From IMG/VR virus record IMGVR_UViG_2698536395_000013: a stretch of 15,945 bases of DNA; one strand, written 5' to 3'. Below are positions 2,287 through 11,539 of the stretch, one piece after another (the stretch's first letter is position 1; the number at the start of each line of letters is the position of its first letter). This DNA comes from a virus (lineage: Duplodnaviria; Heunggongvirae; Uroviricota; Caudoviricetes). A model generated the notes under the pieces. It did not search any database. It had not been told where the DNA came from and worked only from the letters and a program-made list of their open reading frames with translations. A program made the position numbers and the translations under genes.

Positions 2287-2670
2287 TTAATTAGAGTTAT
2301 TAACAACGATATCCATCTCTAACCGGATATCTAATGCCATTAACATCCCTTCAATTATGCCCTCAGCCTTCTGTAACCTTTTCCCGATATAACCATCAGA
2401 GCAGCAATGCTTACCTGCCAGTGACATGAATGTCATACCGACTACATAATAATCTACTAATAAATCGTGCAAATCGCTGTTGTTCTTTTTCAGACGGGCC
2501 ATGCACCCGCAAATGATCATCGCGTCATCGTCACAACATTGCGGGCGAGATTTTACTTTTGAAGTAATTAATCCCTTAAAACCGGCGGCAATGGACGACC
2601 AGGTCACATCTTCATGATTATTAGCCGCCCACGCTCCCCAACGCTCAAGAACCATCTGAATATCACGCAT
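2287..2670 (-). CDS. quuD: late-gene antiterminator Q (phage 82 / DLP12 QuuD type), 127 aa
   Basis: Translation [34 protein letters not shown]...[16 protein letters not shown]...[13 protein letters not shown] with Cys clusters typical of 82-type Q. GGAG SD 9 nt before the ATG at 2670. The 5-codon extension in the track (MWSKL) is rejected. Confidence 0.85.
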
Positions 2671-2755
2671 CAACTTACTCCACAAAAATCAGACCAGAAC
2701 GCCAATTACAAGCAAAAATCAACGAAACAGTATTAGTTGATTGTTATCTCTGACT

Positions 2756-3705: not shown

Positions 3706-4160
3706 TACGCCTCCTGCTTGTCGCGCAGCAGCTGGAACTCGCAGCTCTGCGGAATAGTCAGGTGGCAGCCAATATTCATCGCCCAGGCTTCAACCTTACA
3801 CAGGAAGACATACATCTCTCCGGTATCAAGATCGGAGGTATGGCGTAACGACTGGATAGTAGTGATTTCGCCGGTTACGACATCAACCAGGTCCTTGGTT
3901 TCATAACCGAGGTATGTGTGTTTGAGAGCATCTTTTACCCATGCTGCGGTAGCGAACGATTTCCCCCTGCGGATAAGGTATTCACTGATTTCGCTGTACC
4001 ACATGTGGCTAAGTGCATTCTGGGAAAGACTGCGTCTCTCGCGCCACGGTTTAAGCACCATGCGAAAGCACTTGCCGTCTTCCAAATAAGGCTGGAGCTG
4101 CTGACCGATAGCGGTGAAGTTACCGCGATGCAGTTTGATGCCGTCTTGTGGGAGGTTCAC
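3705..4160 (-). CDS. ybcN: NinB-family recombination protein (DLP12 YbcN-like), 151 aa, GTG start
   Basis: Translation contains [17 protein letters not shown], which parallels the lambda NinB RSLDQN..LW motif. GGAGGTG SD upstream of the GTG at 4160. Confidence 0.8.
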
Positions 4161-4195
4161 GCTTCACCTCCGCAGAGGTCAAACGCTGGATAAAG

Positions 4196-4288
4196 AAAAT
4201 CGCAGGTGCATTTCTGCATCTGTGACGGGAGAAGATAGTTTAGATTGTATGTGCGCATAAACGTCCCCGTTTAGCGCAGAAGTCACCG
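4196..4288. repeat. 93-bp direct repeat, copy A (left boundary of the inserted cassette)
   Basis: 4196-4288 aligns base-for-base with 6518-6610 with about 5 mismatches by my manual alignment. Contains the hairpin GCGCATAAACG-TCCC-CGTTTAGCGC. Confidence 0.85.
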
Positions 4289-4381
4289 GAGGAGTTCAAA
4301 CTCCGGTGACTTAATTATGACAAGTTGATTATTGAAAATCAAAAGTCATTTAAACAATAATGATACCCAGCAAGAGATTTC

Positions 4382-4783
4382 TTATTTTAACTCATAGATC
4401 AGACAGTCAACGATTTCTAAACCATTTACCATAGAATTAGAAACGCGAACTTTACCATCGTTGACTCTAGCAAATCCTTTTAACATTTTATAAACAAAAG
4501 CTGAATCCCCCTTAGCCTCAATTGCTTCTAATGGTATCGGCTTATACTTTTTTGATATGCTATTTCTATTTATCTCACTGATTTTTCTATATATTTCTGC
4601 CGGCCCACGTTCTGAGAAGTCACTGATAACTAAAATATATCTCCAAGATAGATCTGGGTAATAAAACCACATTGCAGCATCAATAGTTAAATTCTGTAAC
4701 TTGAGTTTTTTTAACAAAAATTGACCTGAGAATTCCATATCTTTTGTCAACTCTCTGCCGATTACCAGTGTGCTTTTACCCAT
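4382..4783 (-). CDS. hypothetical protein, 133 aa, partner of the upstream HEPN gene
   Basis: ORF with GGAG SD 9 nt before the ATG at 4783; overlaps the HEPN stop by 22 nt, so the two genes are likely co-translated. AT-rich coding sequence. No motif recognised. Confidence 0.55.
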   Translation of the reverse strand: MGKSTLVIGRELTKDMEFSGQFLLKKLKLQNLTIDAAMWFYYPDLSWRYILVISDFSERGPAEIYRKISEINRNSISKKYKPIPLEAIEAKGDSAFVYKMLKGFARVNDGKVRVSNSMVNGLEIVDCLIYELK

Positions 4784-5178
4784 TTCAAAACTCCAGAATT
4801 TTGGTCACCTACAGCATCAAACAATTGTTCGGCCATAGCTTTACTTATGTTATTGTCGTATCTAAATTGCTCGCTCCAGTCTTTAACGACCGACCAGTTA
4901 ATCTCCAACGAAACATCATTTTTTGCGTCAGCAATCAAAATTTGATGTAAGTTGGCAATTTTGAGAAGTTGCGACAAATCATGAGTATATGAATCATTTA
5001 CGACTTTTTTGTTTGGAAACTCATGTTGTAAAAATGACTTGGCAATACAGGCCTTCAATGCACATTCAACTGCATACCCACAAAGATAATATGCACCATG
5101 AAAAAAGCCATGATCAAGCAAGCATTTGGCCTCATTAAGCCTAGTGTCAGATAATGCTTCAAGGTCGTTTTTATTCAT
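4762..5178 (-). CDS. HEPN-domain protein, 138 aa
   Basis: Translation ...EAKCLLDHGFFHGAYYLCGYAVECALKACIAKSFLQHEFPNKKVVNDSYTHDLSQLLKIANL... matches the classic HEPN helical pattern (A.E.ALKA ... tHDL..Ll). No canonical R-x4-6-H is visible before the His, so catalytic status is uncertain. Confidence 0.65.
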   Translation of the reverse strand: MNKNDLEALSDTRLNEAKCLLDHGFFHGAYYLCGYAVECALKACIAKSFLQHEFPNKKVVNDSYTHDLSQLLKIANLHQILIADAKNDVSLEINWSVVKDWSEQFRYDNNISKAMAEQLFDAVGDQNSGVLKWVKAHW

Positions 5179-5477: not shown

Positions 5478-6221
5478 TTACAGCCGTTCAGAACGTAAAT
5501 GCGTCAATACTCGACTCCACTTATCATCCTGCCACGGCCGGAATTTTACATGTGCCGTTTCTCTGGCAAGGATTGCCTGTGCCTTATTGAGTATCCGGGG
5601 ATATTCTTGTTCGATTGAAGTGAAGCGACCGGCTTCGCGGTGTTCTGCTACCTGAAGAAGCGGAGTGACGTTTTGGCAAGCGGTTAACATTGTGTCACTT
5701 GCCCGCCATAACCAAGCAAGTGTGCAAAGTTCGTTATCAGTGAATTGTTTTGTGATTGGGGATTGTTGAATTTCTCGATCGAGAATATCCAGCACCCAGC
5801 GGCGGAATTCTTTGGCCACAGGAGTGCGGGCGAACATGGCGATCAGATGGGCGCCACGGAGGGAGAAAATGCGAGTCTTCTTACGATAATTTCCTGAGGT
5901 CGTTGATTCGACGACCTGAGACATTCCGTCAGTAAACTCATCAATATTTTTGTTGTAGATGTCGGTTACTGCTTTGGTGCTGGCATATTTTAATGCTGCC
6001 GCCAATTCTTTGCTGGTAAACCAGATCTGGTTGTTGTGATTTATAGGAGTGAATTTTACATCGCGGAATGCGAGCTGAGTGACCATAGCGATAATCTCGT
6101 TTTGAATTTGAGCTATCACCACCGACGACGCCAATCGACTGGTGGTGGACTGTGCAAGGTTGGCGTAACCGGTCAAAACGAAATCCGGCGCTTCCGAAGA
6201 AGCCCTCACACAGCCCACCAT
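5478..6221 (-). CDS. Bro-N domain protein (Roi / antirepressor-like), about 247 aa; start uncertain
   Basis: Translation contains FRDVKFTPINHNNQIWFTSKELAAALKYASTKAVTDIYNKNIDEF, which resembles the Bro-N DNA-binding domain. Start chosen at MVGCV (ATG 6221) because the longer track ORF (to 6323) would read through an intrinsic terminator at 6249-6270. A later start at MVTQ (6089) is possible. Confidence 0.55.
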   Translation of the reverse strand: MVGCVRASSEAPDFVLTGYANLAQSTTSRLASSVVIAQIQNEIIAMVTQLAFRDVKFTPINHNNQIWFTSKELAAALKYASTKAVTDIYNKNIDEFTDGMSQVVESTTSGNYRKKTRIFSLRGAHLIAMFARTPVAKEFRRWVLDILDREIQQSPITKQFTDNELCTLAWLWRASDTMLTACQNVTPLLQVAEHREAGRFTSIEQEYPRILNKAQAILARETAHVKFRPWQDDKWSRVLTHLRSERL

Positions 6222-6248
6222 AATTTTTGTGTAGACGTGCACTGCGCA

Positions 6249-6270
6249 TAAAAAAACCGCGAACGCGGTT
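6249..6270 (-). terminator. intrinsic terminator on minus strand (nin-region tR-like) immediately upstream of the Bro-N gene
   Basis: 6-bp stem AACCGC/GCGGUU with a 4-nt loop, followed on the minus strand by UUUUUUA (plus 6249-6254 is TAAAAAA). Confidence 0.5.
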
Positions 6271-6330
6271 ATGCGTCGTTTTGATGTCCGGGACGCCAAT
6301 CCCGTGTGCCGATTTTGCGGCAACGCACAG

Positions 6331-6838: not shown

Positions 6839-7186
6839 ATGACTATCAAAGCGACTGACATAGAGATTCTTCATCGTTATGCTGAAGGGGTAATGGAACG
6901 TTCTAACCATCATGCAAAAAATGTTGGTGCAGCCGCTCTTACATTGCTAGGAGGTGTTATCTGGAAAGCCCTGCCCGGATCAATCGAGATAAGAACGTAT
7001 AACGGAAGTCTTGCAAATATGGTGTGGTGGCAAAGCGAAAGAACATTAAAAAATTATGCAATCTCATACAACCATAATTCATGTGAAATTGAAATGAGAG
7101 ATGAATCAGTCAAAGGTGCTGTATTATTTAGCATTTCCAACGAAACCACTCCAGAAAAAATATTATCACAGCTTTCTGAGCTTTAA
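6839..7186 (+). CDS. hypothetical protein, 115 aa, solitary plus-strand gene inside the minus-strand early-right operon
   Basis: ORF MTIKATDIEILHRYAEGVMERSNHHAKNVGAAALTLLGGVIWKALPGSIEIRTYNGSLANMVWWQSERTLKNY.... Very AT-rich gene and upstream region. Extended -10 TGcTATATT at 6777-6785. Followed by a hairpin at 7192-7209. No family recognised. Confidence 0.55.
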   Translation: MTIKATDIEILHRYAEGVMERSNHHAKNVGAAALTLLGGVIWKALPGSIEIRTYNGSLANMVWWQSERTLKNYAISYNHNSCEIEMRDESVKGAVLFSISNETTPEKILSQLSEL

Positions 7187-7390: not shown

Positions 7391-8092
7391 TCATACACTT
7401 GCTCCTTTCAGCCCAAACTTAGCTTTGATTTCTGCGATCTTCGCCAGAGCCTGTGCACGATTTAGAGGTCTACCGCCCATAACAGGAAGTTGTTTTACTG
7501 GTTCAGGTATCGTCTCACCACGGTTAATTCGCGCTGTCATACAGGTCAGTTCATCGGCAGCCTTGCGCCGTAATTCCGCGTCAGTCAGCGCATTGGCCCG
7601 CATGTTCTGGTACAGGTTGGTAACCAACCAGTAATGCGCGTTCGATTTCCACGGATAAGACTCTGCATCCGGATACAGGCCACGCTTCCGGCAATACTCG
7701 TAAACCATATCAACCAGCTCGCTGACGTTTGGCAGCCCGGCGTTAACGGATGCTTCTTCCCGGCACCATGCAACAAACTGCCCGGGTGATGGCAGAAATG
7801 GTCTATTCTGCCGACGGGCAACACGCATTCCGGCGCTCACCTGTTCCATCGTGGTGATCCCGTTTTCCCGGAAAGCCAGAACCCACTGGCGGCGGATTTC
7901 GTTCAGTTCGTTCTGGTCACGATTAGCCAGGCTCGCCGGGAAAGTTGCCAGTAACTGGCTGAATACACCGTTGATTATCTGCGCTACCTGCTGTACCTGC
8001 GGCTTTTCGTCGTACTGTTCCGGCATGTTGTTGGCGATCCGACGCATCTGCTCACGGTCAAAGTTAATCATCTGTGCGGCGATGTTTTTCAT
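7391..8092 (-). CDS. P: replication protein P (DnaB helicase loader), 233 aa
   Basis: Translation MKNIAAQMINFDREQMRRIANNMPEQYDEKPQVQQVAQIINGVFSQLLATFPASLANRDQNELNEIRRQWVLAFRENGITTMEQV...AKIAEIKAKFGLKGASV is close to lambda P as I recall it. ATG overlaps the O stop (ATGA). The extended track ORF (to 8197) is rejected. Confidence 0.9.
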   Translation of the reverse strand: MKNIAAQMINFDREQMRRIANNMPEQYDEKPQVQQVAQIINGVFSQLLATFPASLANRDQNELNEIRRQWVLAFRENGITTMEQVSAGMRVARRQNRPFLPSPGQFVAWCREEASVNAGLPNVSELVDMVYEYCRKRGLYPDAESYPWKSNAHYWLVTNLYQNMRANALTDAELRRKAADELTCMTARINRGETIPEPVKQLPVMGGRPLNRAQALAKIAEIKAKFGLKGASV

Positions 8093-9018
8093 AGATCCAC
8101 CCCGTAAATCCAGTCTGTGTTTGTCAGGTCGAGTTTTGGTTTGCCGACTGTCACGCCAGCCTGTTGCTTGTTCCGGTTGATTTCGAGCTGGGTCCACTTG
8201 TCGCGGAGTTTGGCCGGACTCAGCACGTTACCGGACCAGAAGTTGTCCTGGCAGGCCCAGCGGAACAGTACACACATGTCGCGGTGGTTACGTCCATCAC
8301 GTTCACGCATCAGACGGATATCGTTAGCCCACCCTGCAAAATTCGGTTTTCTGGCTGATGGCGCGATGGTCTTCACCATGTCAAACATCCACTCTGCGGC
8401 GGTCAGGTCTTCTGCTGTCCCCCACTTGCTGCCGCTCTGAATCGCAGCATCCGCTTTCACCACAGGAAGGTCGTTTTCTGGCAGGTCAGAGGATTCGCCA
8501 GAATTCTCGGACGAATAAGGTTTTATATTGTCTTTTGTTAGTTTGTCTTTTGTGTTTACCTGATTCGGGTAAGTGCCTTTACCTGATTTGGGTAAACTTT
8601 TCTTACCTGATTCAGGTAAATTTACCTCTTTCAGGTAAACTTTATTTTTCTTACCTGATTCGGGTAATGTTGACCATTCACTGACCACATTATTAATGCC
8701 GATATTCCGCCCGCTCTGAATAAAAATCCCACGCTTTACCAGAACACTTTTTGCAGCAGAACACTTGTGCGGCAATATCCCGGTCAACTCGGAAAGTTGC
8801 TCGTTGCTCACCCAGTCCAGTTTTTTATTAAAGCCATATGTTTTGCGCATGACAGCCAGGAAGACCAGAAGCTGGTGCTGTGTTAATCCGGCCAGCATTA
8901 CAGCTTCCAGCAACTCATTTGCAATGCGCGTATAACCATCATCGAGATCTGCCACGCGCGGCTCCTTTTGTGCCGCATCCGGCACTGGAAAATTGAATAT
9001 CTCAGCAGTGTTTGCCAT
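8089..9018 (-). CDS. O: replication initiator O, 309 aa; N-terminal iteron-binding domain diverged, C-terminal P-interaction domain lambda-like
   Basis: Starts MANTAEIFNFPVPDAAQKEPRVADLDDGY with GGGAGG SD. The C-terminal part AIQSGSKWGTAEDLTAAEWMFDMVKTIAPSARKPNFAGWANDIRLMRERDGRNHRDMCVLFRWACQDNFWSGNVLSPAKLRDKWTQLEINRNKQQAGVT is close to lambda O. The iteron array lies inside the gene. Confidence 0.9.
   Translation of the reverse strand: MANTAEIFNFPVPDAAQKEPRVADLDDGYTRIANELLEAVMLAGLTQHQLLVFLAVMRKTYGFNKKLDWVSNEQLSELTGILPHKCSAAKSVLVKRGIFIQSGRNIGINNVVSEWSTLPESGKKNKVYLKEVNLPESGKKSLPKSGKGTYPNQVNTKDKLTKDNIKPYSSENSGESSDLPENDLPVVKADAAIQSGSKWGTAEDLTAAEWMFDMVKTIAPSARKPNFAGWANDIRLMRERDGRNHRDMCVLFRWACQDNFWSGNVLSPAKLRDKWTQLEINRNKQQAGVTVGKPKLDLTNTDWIYGVDL
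8556..8667. repeat. ori iterons: five copies of a 17-bp near-palindrome TTACCTGATTCGGGTAA inside the O gene, next to an AT-rich segment (about 8500-8555)
   Basis: Copies at 8556-8572, 8579-8595, 8603-8619, 8622-8638 and 8651-8667 with 1-3 substitutions. Encoded as the repetitive LPESGK peptide in O. Confidence 0.8.
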
Positions 9019-9104
9019 AATTCCTCCCGCAATGAGTGTGTTACGATTTGCACCTGAAAGTCGGTTCTGTTCCAGCAGACCGGCTTTCGCCATTTCTGAA
9101 CCTG

Positions 9105-9644
9105 TCATATCGCCCCCAGCATGGTAGTAACCATCGCCATCAATGGACCAGCCAGCTCTGGGTCCACACGAAACATCGACACAATACCTTCACTAATTTC
9201 CTTCAGTTTCTGGTGGCGTGGTGCGTTGAGAATGACAGCCTGTTTTGCCTCACTGAGTTCCTTTTCCATTTCAGCCAACCTAGCCATGAAGCTATCCTGC
9301 TCAACCAGGTAACCGCGATATTCCAGCGGTAGTACCGCCAGAATTGCCGGGGTCAGTTCACGCACGTTATTTCGGTATTTTTCAGAATCGAATTTGTTAT
9401 CGAGGAAGCGGAACAGCTTCTGGCGTGTACGGCTGACATCATCAGGGAAATCGATGGTGCCGCCGCCCTGCTCCCGATACTCATTCACAATGAGTGTGGC
9501 AACGACATCCTGATTATCTACAGCCGACCAGGCGCGGACGGCATCACGGATTTTTTCGTGGCCTGGCACCTGTTTTGTTTGAGAACGATTTATCACCGCA
9601 GTCGGGCTAAATCCGCTAGTCTGTTGGTATGGAAGTGGTTGCAT
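9105..9644 (-). CDS. hypothetical phage regulatory protein in the cII position, 179 aa
   Basis: ORF with AAGGAG SD before the ATG at 9644, between cro and O. Much longer than lambda CII (97 aa) and no HTH recognised by eye. Functional assignment is positional only. Confidence 0.45.
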   Translation of the reverse strand: MQPLPYQQTSGFSPTAVINRSQTKQVPGHEKIRDAVRAWSAVDNQDVVATLIVNEYREQGGGTIDFPDDVSRTRQKLFRFLDNKFDSEKYRNNVRELTPAILAVLPLEYRGYLVEQDSFMARLAEMEKELSEAKQAVILNAPRHQKLKEISEGIVSMFRVDPELAGPLMAMVTTMLGAI

Positions 9645-9713
9645 AATTGACTCCTTTAGTTTGAATTGACTGTTAAGTTGATTGCTTATTGTTAAAGAGC
9701 GTGAAATGGAAAT

Positions 9714-9944
9714 TTAAGCTGCGTTCTTTTCGGTGTGTGGAAACAACTTCGGAAGATCCGGGCGAATCTGGTATGCCTTCACTACTCCACCAGTAGCCGT
9801 AACAATGCTGCCGACATGTTCAGGGGATACCTTTGCTTTGTTGTGAAGCCACTTATAGACGGCCTGCTGTGAAACTTCGCAGGCAGCGCCCAGTTTCTTT
9901 TGTGAACCAACGATATTGATCGCTGTTTTGATAGCTGGGTTCAT
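9714..9944 (-). CDS. cro: Cro-like HTH repressor (Cro/YdaS family), 76 aa
   Basis: Translation MNPAIKTAINIVGSQKKLGAACEVSQQAVYKWLHNKAKVSPEH contains a helix-turn-helix (QKKLGAACEVSQQAVYKW). GGAGG SD. Divergent from cI across an operator region. Confidence 0.7.
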   Translation of the reverse strand: MNPAIKTAINIVGSQKKLGAACEVSQQAVYKWLHNKAKVSPEHVGSIVTATGGVVKAYQIRPDLPKLFPHTEKNAA

Positions 9945-10048
9945 AACAACCTCCGTGGTTAATTTGAATCAAGATTAAAACTATGGTTGTCTTTAGTCAA
10001 CAACCATTTTCGTTTGATGGAATAAAACCTTGGTTGTACATTTGGACT
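9945..10048. promoter_or_regulatory. OR region: divergent pR (minus, for cro) and pRM (plus, for cI) with operator palindromes
   Basis: 25-bp palindrome ATGGTTGT-N9-ACAACCAT at 9983-10007 overlaps the minus-strand -35 TTGACT of a pR candidate. A further TGGTTGTACA half-site at 10031-10040 overlaps the pRM -10 candidate TACATT (10037-10042), with -35 TTGATG at 10015-10020. Confidence 0.5.
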
Positions 10049-10738
10049 ATGAAAACAACACTCTCAGAAAGACTTAAAGAAGCCAGATTAGCGCGAGGCC
10101 TTACACAAAAGGCGCTTGGGGATTTGGTCGGGGTTAGCCAGGCTGCTATTCAGAAAATCGAAACAGGGAAAGCTAATCAAACAACTAAAATCGTGGAGAT
10201 CGCGAACGCTTTGGGTGTGCGCGCAGAATGGTTATCTTCTGGCGTTGGAAATATGTCAGACAGTACAGTGCAACCAATACAATCAACTGTCAGCCATTCC
10301 AAATACTTCAAGATTGACGTTCTTGATATAGAAGTCAGTGCTGGGCCGGGAGTCATCAACCGTGAGTTTGTAGAAGTTCTACGCTCGGTTGAGTACTCGT
10401 TTGACGATGCTCGTCACATGTTCGATGGTAGGAAGGCAGAAAATATCCGCATCATTAACGTGCGTGGTGACAGCATGTCAGGAACGATCGAACCAGGTGA
10501 TCTGCTGTTCGTTGATATCACGGTTAAATCTTTCGACGGTGATGGTATCTATGCATTTCTGTACGACGACACCGCCCATGTAAAGCGCCTGCAAATGATG
10601 AAGGATAAACTGCTGGTTATCTCTGATAACAAGAGCTACTCACCGTGGGACCCTATCGAGAAAGACGAGATGAACCGGGTATTCATATTCGGTAAGGTTA
10701 TTGGGAGCATGCCGCAGACGTACAGAAAACACGGATAA
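10049..10738 (+). CDS. cI: CI-type prophage repressor (N-terminal HTH, C-terminal S24 LexA-like autopeptidase), 229 aa, probably leaderless
   Basis: Translation MKTTLSERLKEARLARGLTQKALGDLVGVSQAAIQKIETGKA (HTH) ... INVRGDSMSGTIEPGDLLFVD ... VKRL (Ser/Lys dyad context). No SD; the ATG lies about 7 nt after the putative -10. The upstream in-frame ATG at 9983 lies inside the operator and is rejected. Confidence 0.85.
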   Translation: MKTTLSERLKEARLARGLTQKALGDLVGVSQAAIQKIETGKANQTTKIVEIANALGVRAEWLSSGVGNMSDSTVQPIQSTVSHSKYFKIDVLDIEVSAGPGVINREFVEVLRSVEYSFDDARHMFDGRKAENIRIINVRGDSMSGTIEPGDLLFVDITVKSFDGDGIYAFLYDDTAHVKRLQMMKDKLLVISDNKSYSPWDPIEKDEMNRVFIFGKVIGSMPQTYRKHG

Positions 10739-10819
10739 TCAGCCGCGTGTTGATGAGGCTTTTGGGTAATACGCTGAAGAAAATACCTTATAAAAAATAA
10801 CATTACGGGAAAGGCAAAA

Positions 10820-11083
10820 ATGAGTAATAAAACACTTGTTAAAAAATCAAATAACTGTGTCGATGCATACGCCGACGCGTTTGGCTACTCTTCGTTTGGT
10901 GACGGCTCTCAGCGCCTAGGTTCAATTTCTTTTTTTCATAATGTAACTGAATGGCCTGTTGATGAAAGTGACGATGTTGAGAACATAAAGTACAACATTG
11001 CAACCATTAGAATGCCCGAAGAATTGATGCTTAAATTGGCTGACTTCATTCGCGACCAGCATGACAAAGCTAAAACAAACTAA
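10820..11083 (+). CDS. hypothetical acidic protein, 87 aa, first gene in the rexA-equivalent position
   Basis: ORF downstream of cI on the same strand; AT-rich; GGGAAAGG upstream of the ATG. No family recognised. Confidence 0.5.
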   Translation: MSNKTLVKKSNNCVDAYADAFGYSSFGDGSQRLGSISFFHNVTEWPVDESDDVENIKYNIATIRMPEELMLKLADFIRDQHDKAKTN

Positions 11084-11095
11084 TCGTAATTAATT

Positions 11096-11539
11096 ATGAA
11101 ACACGATTATTACGAAGCTCCAAACCTAAATGATAAAATTGCAAAGGCGGCAGAATCATTTTGTTTGCACTCCAGTGCGTCTTCCCAGCTAGCAGGTATA
11201 TCTGGAAAAAGATGGGACATGCTACAATCAAGTGGTAGCAGTGGGTCTGGGAGTGATAACATGCCTGAAAAAGTTGCAAAACTGGAGTCCGATGTTGCTC
11301 ATATCAAACGAGACGTTGATGAACTTAAAACAGACGTTAAAGCTATCGACAAAAATATGATAACTATTCTTGCACGTCTGGACTCTATAAAAGAATCCTT
11401 AACAAACAAGCCATCAAGTGATGCTGTCGATAGAAAGATTTCAGACGCAAAGCTTGCGGTATTGCTTGGTGTTCCAGCAATCATCGCTGCAGGAACAGGA
11501 CTTTATAAGCTATCAATGTACTTTTTCTTTAGTGCTTAA
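11096..11539 (+). CDS. hypothetical coiled-coil protein with C-terminal transmembrane anchor, 147 aa (alternative start at 11261 gives 92 aa)
   Basis: Heptad-like segment KVAKLESDVAHIKRDVDELKTDVKAIDKNMITILARLDSIKESL followed by the hydrophobic LAVLLGVPAIIAAGTGLY. The ATG at 11096 has no SD; the in-frame ATG at 11261 has GGGAG upstream. Confidence 0.5.
   Translation: MKHDYYEAPNLNDKIAKAAESFCLHSSASSQLAGISGKRWDMLQSSGSSGSGSDNMPEKVAKLESDVAHIKRDVDELKTDVKAIDKNMITILARLDSIKESLTNKPSSDAVDRKISDAKLAVLLGVPAIIAAGTGLYKLSMYFFFSA

Follow-up and report, generated by a model that had tools for sequence, protein, structure and literature searches.

The long gene between cro and O of this lambdoid phage belongs to the YdaT/phi80-CII family of known DNA-binding regulators, of which it is an ordinary representative, and very probably encodes the phage's equivalent of lambda CII, to whose fold that of the family is unrelated. 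Membership of the family, the fold, the conserved DNA-reading residues, the genomic slot and the occurrence of the family's operator in the phage DNA were all observed in the window, by which we mean the whole stretch of 15,945 nucleotides analysed. A long cII gene of this type is an already-known kind of CII analogue, and the gene itself adds nothing new; for annotation, this "long CII" is settled as the phi80-type CII analogue. The only part of the analysis that merits experiment is a predicted operator map, a side result of modest value.

Genomic context of the long cII gene

The window has the layout of a lambdoid early region in reversed orientation (Table 1). The CI-type repressor gene and the gam/bet/exo genes were found on the plus strand. 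On the minus strand the order was the Cro-like gene, the cII ORF, O, P, an accessory block, a ybcN/ninB-like gene, Q and a porin gene. The cII gene thus has the context of the family, with a YdaS/Cro-like gene on one side, the replication genes on the other and a CI-type repressor gene opposite. The TGA of cII (9107-9105) and the ATG of the O-like ORF (9108) share the tetranucleotide ATGA.

A sequence-only reading of the same DNA had described an ORF of 179 aa at 9105-9644 without naming its strand. The ORF is a genuine gene, on the minus strand; chance was ruled out as its origin because database homologues of the protein number 528 and in Enterobacteriaceae are typically 179-180 aa long. The strong Shine-Dalgarno sequence described in that reading was present as AAGGAG, the gene was the only one in the cro-to-O gap, and its reported size of almost double that of lambda CII corresponds to 1.85 times the 97 aa of the lambda protein.

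Table 1. Positions of the genes, sites and RNA elements discussed in the text (window coordinates)
Feature	Position	Strand	Details
ydaT-type cII gene	9105..9644	minus	179 aa; ATG start at 9644-9642
Shine-Dalgarno sequence AAGGAG	9651..9656	minus	6 nt 5' of the cII ATG
Cro analogue, YdaS family (PF15943)	9714..9944	minus	76 aa; assigned with Pfam; 5' of cII
Replication protein O (PF04492)	8089..9108	minus	start overlaps cII stop
P (PF06992)	7391..8197	minus	downstream of O
CI-type repressor (HTH_3 + Peptidase_S24)	9983..10738	plus	divergent; presumed target of the establishment transcript
Q	2287..2685	minus	with a porin gene also on the minus strand
Degenerate YdaT box GTGATAaatcgtTCTCAA	9579..9596	minus	gene nt +49..+66; 4 mismatches to TTGATT-N6-AATCAA
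-10-like hexamer TAGTCT	9617..9622	plus	antisense; gene nt +28..+23; 20 nt from box
Perfect YdaT box TTGATTattgaaAATCAA	4325..4342		165 bp 5' of the ybcN/ninB-like gene in the pR direction
Promoter-like site TTGATT-17 bp-(TG)CATAAT	4314..4342	minus	box spans approximately -35 to -18
Structured leader, three hairpins	4192..4312	minus	single-sequence folds; precedes the ybcN/ninB-like gene
Hairpin 1	4280-4312	minus	conserved CCUGAACAA loop
Hairpin 2	4252-4278	minus	GGGA loop
Hairpin 3 and U-run	4203-4222	minus	terminator-like; scan hit; compensatory pairs

Several other features of the early region were recorded. The first two genes on the pL side (87 and 147 aa; 10820-11539, plus strand) matched only PHROGs of unknown function, and neither an N nor a cIII homologue could be recognised within the window. 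Repeated ATGGTTGT/ACAACCAT palindromes in the cI-cro intergenic region (9945-10037) are probably the OR operators, and iteron-like repeats of TACCTGATTCGGGTAA inside O (approximately 8540-8670) presumably mark the replication origin.

Assignment of the protein to the YdaT/phi80-CII family

The cII protein matched Pfam PF06254 (YdaT_toxin) with an E-value of 7.4e-30 and a score of 103.7 bits (cut-off, 21), and PHROG 163, "CII-like transcriptional activator", matched it over its full length (5.4e-67). An NCBIfam search with the protein gave no match. In phmmer searches of PDB sequences, only 8BT1, the YdaT of CP-933P, and 3C4R were matched; residues 28-106 aligned to 8BT1, with QKLFRFLD in the recognition helix corresponding to QKIFRWLD. 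Pfam Phage_CII did not match the protein at E<=0.1, and BLASTP against lambda CII gave an E-value of 0.34 over 28 residues outside the HTH. The earlier proposal of a different type of lysis-lysogeny regulator was therefore supported by these searches, the type being that of the YdaT/phi80-CII family.

Among the 528 homologues, 179-180 aa was the usual length in Escherichia, Citrobacter, Klebsiella, Enterobacter, Salmonella and other genera. Sixteen E. coli phages, among them the PhiR series, 4A7/Lambda_4C10 (genus Bievrevirus), Perceval and Turner, carry the cII gene at 94-99% nucleotide identity, and most of these copies are annotated as cII or "CII-like transcriptional activator". More distantly, the CII proteins of mEp237, HK225 and HK639 were 52-67% identical to the window protein.

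The phi80 CII (NC_021190 gp48, 180 aa) was 66% identical over the full length, belongs to the same length class and is encoded in the corresponding slot, flanked by cro (gene 30) and an O-like gene (gene 15). The two phages differ in the cI/cro immunity region, and an oop-like M3 RNA follows cII in phi80, whereas cII overlaps O directly in the window phage. The phi80 record of 1988 gives a cII of 132 aa from an internal start, and RefSeq gives 180 aa (3750-4148 in our locus L187 versus 2172-2714 in L062); the long ORF is likely the product, since the short version would lose helix 1 of the HTH domain.

We also considered a diverged or fused lambda/P22-type CII (Phage_CII) with extra domains. 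In its favour, the window gene sits in the same genomic slot, and an R-W motif common to helix 3 of YdaT and of lambda CII has been pointed out in one paper. This explanation is effectively refuted by the Phage_CII and BLASTP results given above, and the closed 222 symmetry and inverted repeats of YdaT are set against the direct TTGC-N6-TTGC repeats and asymmetric tetramer of lambda CII, which showed no sequence or structural relationship to the window protein. The fusion suggested in the sequence-only reading was likewise not upheld, because 179-180 aa is normal for the subfamily across many genera; the whole length forms one conserved unit of HTH, oligomerisation helix and C-terminal helices.

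Predicted structure and DNA-binding residues

An AlphaFold2 monomer model of moderate quality (pLDDT 72, pTM 0.48) showed, as in the YdaT family, an all-alpha domain with a POU-like HTH and, C-terminal to it, a long helix. Helices were modelled at 28-43, 45-58, 73-81, 88-104, 107-112 and 119-138, the last being the long helix, which had high pLDDT, and two more conserved helices lie at 143-178. Residues 1-27 were predicted to be disordered, yet they were partly conserved. The HTH domain, made up of the first five helices, covers approximately residues 28-112, with a recognition helix at approximately 69-82. The model has a coil at 59-72, and the loop between helices 2 and 3, at about 9 residues, is 5 residues shorter than that of CP-933P YdaT and inside the range of the family. 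When the PDB was searched with the model by Foldseek, the top five matches were all YdaT (3C4R and 8BT1; probability 1.0, TM 0.62-0.65) with approximately 120 aligned columns at 26% identity, and the next match had an E-value of 1.8.

Structure prediction had been proposed as a check when the gene was first noticed, and it returned the YdaT fold. No obvious HTH had been seen at that time; the phmmer alignment, the AlphaFold2 model and the Foldseek matches show that an HTH is present, though an atypical one whose two helices are separated by a long loop.

In an alignment of 30 homologues, Q75, K76, F78 and R79 were invariant. R79, which lies in the recognition helix, aligned with the arginine of the same helix that is required for DNA binding in CP-933P YdaT (R60) and Rac YdaT (R57). 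Prolic-Kalinsek et al. (PMC9986795) solved the structure of CP-933P YdaT and reported that helices 2 and 3 of its POU-like HTH are joined by a long loop, that it forms a tetramer via helix 6, that oligomerisation is needed for DNA binding, and that its footprint covers TTGATT-N6-AATCAA. In the family, the tetramer is built as an antiparallel bundle of the long helix. By homology, the window protein would form a tetramer via its long helix and would bind inverted repeats related to TTGATT-N6-AATCAA through the atypical HTH, with Arg79 in the recognition helix.

The window protein shares with CP-933P YdaT (8BT1, 3C4R) the Pfam family, the modelled fold, the recognition helix, the essential arginine and the cro/cII-slot context, and the proven operator of CP-933P YdaT, TTGATT-N6-AATCAA, is present perfectly in the window phage. 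The two proteins are, however, only approximately 26% identical. Besides the shorter loop, the window protein has approximately 24 extra N-terminal residues and approximately 19 extra C-terminal residues that form a conserved hydrophobic helix.

Published functions of the homologues and the toxin label

Family members have been shown by experiment to act as CII analogues (PMC8630535, PMC9986795, PMC11879457). Jurenas et al. (PMC8630535) described CP-933P YdaT as a non-toxic homologue of phi80 CII that turns on the otherwise silent promoter PRE933P. Wons et al. (PMC11879457) found that the start codon of Rac ydaT is overlapped by a box, ATGATT-N6-AATCAA, to which the protein binds, that Rac YdaT raises the activity of a reverse promoter for racR 29-fold, and that the Rac and CP-933P proteins, which are only 30% identical, cross-bind each other's boxes. 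Rac YdaT of E. coli K-12 belongs to the same family and acts on a reverse promoter that serves the repressor gene, although it differs from the window protein in its length (141 aa), in activation from approximately 190 bp, in having host targets (rcsA) and in residing in a defective prophage.

These reports bear on the reading in which the window protein is the toxin of a YdaS/YdaT toxin-antitoxin pair and harms the host. Pfam names the family "Bacterial toxin ydaT", the neighbouring gene matches "YdaS_toxin", and over-expressed Rac YdaT causes filamentation and cell death, an effect that is explained by mis-regulation of rcsA. However, CP-933P YdaT is a regulator without toxicity, the fold is that of a DNA-binding HTH, and the gene occupies the cII slot of plaque-forming temperate phages in which it is annotated as cII. 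The homologue literature against a toxin-antitoxin role includes PMC5917428 and PMC5917430. We regard a toxin role as very improbable.

The Pfam name is a historical misnomer, because the CP-933P and Rac proteins were shown to be tetrameric regulators that activate the leftward repressor promoter. Assignment to a known non-regulatory family, which the sequence-only reading had named as evidence against a regulator, was thus found in name only, through the word "toxin", whereas the literature describes a transcription factor. The label "toxin YdaT" should not be taken to indicate a toxin in intact temperate phages.

A predicted pRE-like promoter and operator inside the cII gene

The degenerate box at 9579-9596 lies within the 5' end of the cII gene. 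We compared 51 distinct homologous genes, which are non-independent sequences, so that the following conservation counts overstate significance. The best box match within the gene was at +49 in 49 of the 51, and TGAT (+50-53) and T63/C64 were invariant. At the isoleucine codon in the box, ATA was used 41 times, ATT 10 times and ATC never, whereas ATC made up 56% of the isoleucine codons elsewhere in the same genes. The half-sites were kept while the encoded peptide varied (MINRAQ, LISQNQ, MIYQNR, LIFENQ, LISIYQ). Relatives with only 1-2 mismatches in the box at +49 were also found (ENT1, TTGATTtcgattTATCAA; L037, TTGATAaatcgcTATCAA), and phi80 cII has a box-like sequence at +49 as well (ATGATAaaccgcGCTCAA).

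On the antisense strand, TAnnnT occurred at +28..+23 in 51/51 genes (TATTGT, TACTCT, TATCAT and others) despite varying amino acids. With a predicted start at approximately 9629, the centre of the box falls at approximately -41.5. A consensus promoter scan of 9000-10900 returned nothing, so the proposal of a pRE here draws on comparative conservation only. From this conservation we infer that 9579-9596 is an autogenous/pRE operator, and the box and TAGTCT together look like pRE. The disordered N-terminal extension of 27 residues probably exists because the ORF crosses this promoter and operator DNA, which would also account for its partial conservation.

The arrangement is similar to that of lambda, in which pRE and the CII site lie inside the 5' end of the cII gene and transcription runs antisense through cro into cI. 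The Rac box, which lies over the start codon just 5' of the code for helix 1, is the positional equivalent of +49..+66 in the window gene.

The cro/cII junction was examined as the main operator and rejected. Its one box-like site (9678-9695) has 3 mismatches, and apart from this only half-sites in direct repeat (AATTGACT twice) were found; the junction was dropped because this stretch is not conserved in 4A7, which has the cII gene in common with the window phage and a different cro; homology between the two phages starts exactly at the cII ATG. In this respect the window phage differs from CP-933P, where the strong operator is at the ydaS/ydaT junction, since its junction-proximal site is degenerate and its perfect site is 5.3 kb away.

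A perfect YdaT box and a structured leader at the entrance to the nin-Q region

The box at 4325-4342 was the only exact match to TTGATT-N6-AATCAA in the window and lies 5.3 kb from the cII junction. The 49-kb genome of 4A7 also contains just one perfect box, at the nin site. In PhiR34_1 and 4A7 the half-sites are identical to those of the window phage but the spacers differ, and the box is where homology among the three phages begins. In 55 scanned YdaT loci (approximately 1.06 Mb), which are prophage loci found through the protein, the exact box occurred 19 times against approximately 0.06 expected. When one mismatch was allowed, the box was found in the same context in approximately 25 loci, and its distance downstream from the gene was in every case 3.4-9.3 kb.

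The shared context was TTGATT-N6-AATCAA-N5-CATAAT followed by hairpins 1, 2 and 3 and a U-run. The elements of the promoter-like site are marked as a putative -35/-10 in the phage 82 record (X92588). The stems of the leader differed among prophages while the loops were kept, and each sequence folded alike on its own. RNAalifold on a MAFFT alignment recovered only hairpin 3; as hairpins 1 and 2 are misaligned through indels, single-sequence folds were used. No Rfam family matched this leader, and the phage 82 and phi80 records mark hairpin 1 as no more than a "possible regulator-binding site" and "IR4", respectively. The segment 4192-4342 could act as an antitermination element or attenuator, or could encode a small RNA. 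On the other side of the nin box, where the sequence is non-homologous among phages, no -10 of an antisense promoter was conserved.

The nin site of phi80 carries another half-site variant, the symmetric TTGATA-N6-TATCAA, upstream of ybcN. As a control, two Klebsiella phages with a lambda/P22-type CII were inspected; they keep the -10 and the hairpins without the AATCAA half-site. We then scanned IMG/VR for the terminator hairpin of the leader and counted only loci with a visible cII type. Of the loci with a YdaT-type cII, 28/28 had a box with two or fewer mismatches, 14 of them exact. None of the nine loci with a lambda/P22-type CII had an exact box; four had one mismatch, one had two mismatches and four were without a box. 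Hypergeometric tests of box against cII type gave p values of approximately 0.002 and 0.007, which are uncorrected for shared ancestry and overstate the significance. The association favours a YdaT-type CII as the binder of the nin box. The palindrome is not exclusive to YdaT phages, since five of the nine lambda/P22-type CII phages carry a box with 1-2 mismatches; it could also be bound by something else or be a recombination relic.

FNR was considered as a binder of the palindrome. The FNR consensus is TTGAT-N4-ATCAA, and FNR was rejected on spacing, the palindrome here having N8 in place of N4.

The position of this box suggests a further reading, namely that the protein is a YdaT-family DNA binder whose main task is to repress or obstruct transcription at the nin-Q entrance, at pR or at both, with cI established in some other way. 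The only perfect box of the phage covers the -35 and spacer of a promoter-like site that precedes the nin genes, weak intergenic operators allow Rac YdaT to lower the expression of racR, and 2-mismatch boxes adjoin the cro start in two different immunity types (9955-9972 in the window; 11483-11500 of our locus L002 in 4A7). However, both studied homologues activate the leftward repressor promoter, the arrangement of in-gene box and TAnnnT is kept throughout the gene set described above, and the phi80 gene was named cII. We consider a mainly repressive role possible but unlikely, and prefer that of a CII equivalent.

An identical perfect box (TTGATTttgggaAATCAA) with the same -10 and hairpins was noted in the DLP12 prophage of E. 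coli K-12 MG1655, upstream of ylcH-ybcN (NC_000913.3, approximately 572285-572302; 1686-1703 in our locus L066). DLP12 is without a cII of its own, and the Rac YdaT in the same cell recognises this type of sequence. The ylcH-ybcN genes are not mentioned in the Rac YdaT paper, and a literature search for ylcH gave only irrelevant matches.

Proposed mechanism

In the model that we propose for a CII equivalent, the protein would be made early from pR, after cro. It would bind the degenerate box in its own gene and, from approximately -41.5, activate the weak leftward promoter with its -10 at 9617-9622. The predicted transcript would run antisense through cro into cI, so that repression would be established as from lambda pRE. 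The protein may also bind the perfect box over the -35 and spacer at the nin-Q entrance, where the most likely effect would be repression or a roadblock to transcription that delays Q, as a protein counterpart of lambda paQ. The direction of this effect, repression rather than activation, is a guess from position and is the weakest step of the model.

Lambda CII follows the same logic, as it is made from pR after cro and has a second site near the Q region. Lambda paQ, however, gives an antisense RNA inside Q, whereas the box in the window overlaps a sense-strand promoter-like site upstream of nin.

With rather less than even confidence, we put forward the following joint reading. YdaT-type CIIs would have a conserved second operator, a perfect palindrome over the -35 and spacer of a promoter at the head of a three-hairpin leader that includes a terminator, and would in this way gate Q directly, as a substitute for paQ; Rac YdaT could cross-regulate DLP12; and the subfamily would have its N-terminal extension simply because the ORF overlaps its own pRE and operator. 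If this is true, a second operator far from the immunity region would control access to the late-gene antiterminator. The reading would extend the known sites (three in Rac and one in CP-933P) to a general lambdoid layout, and it offers a testable map for this class of CII analogues, with a pRE-like promoter in the 5' end of the gene itself and a nin-Q operator that is found also in K-12 DLP12.

Accessory modules between P and the nin region

Rfam matches on the minus strand placed isrK at 6250-6322 and a C4 antisense RNA at 6138-6225, directly upstream of an antirepressor gene (5478-6095; Bro-N and P22_AR_C). Together they make up an ant module under RNA control, of the P1/Gifsy-like kind, that has been inserted in the stretch from P to the nin region. 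A gene for a HEPN-domain protein (4762-5178, minus strand) overlaps a partner gene of 133 aa (4382-4783) just upstream of the nin box, and the two may form a toxin-antitoxin or defence pair. Finally, an ORF of 115 aa (6839-7186) on the plus strand, antisense to the early operon, matched the integron-cassette family VCH_CASS14.
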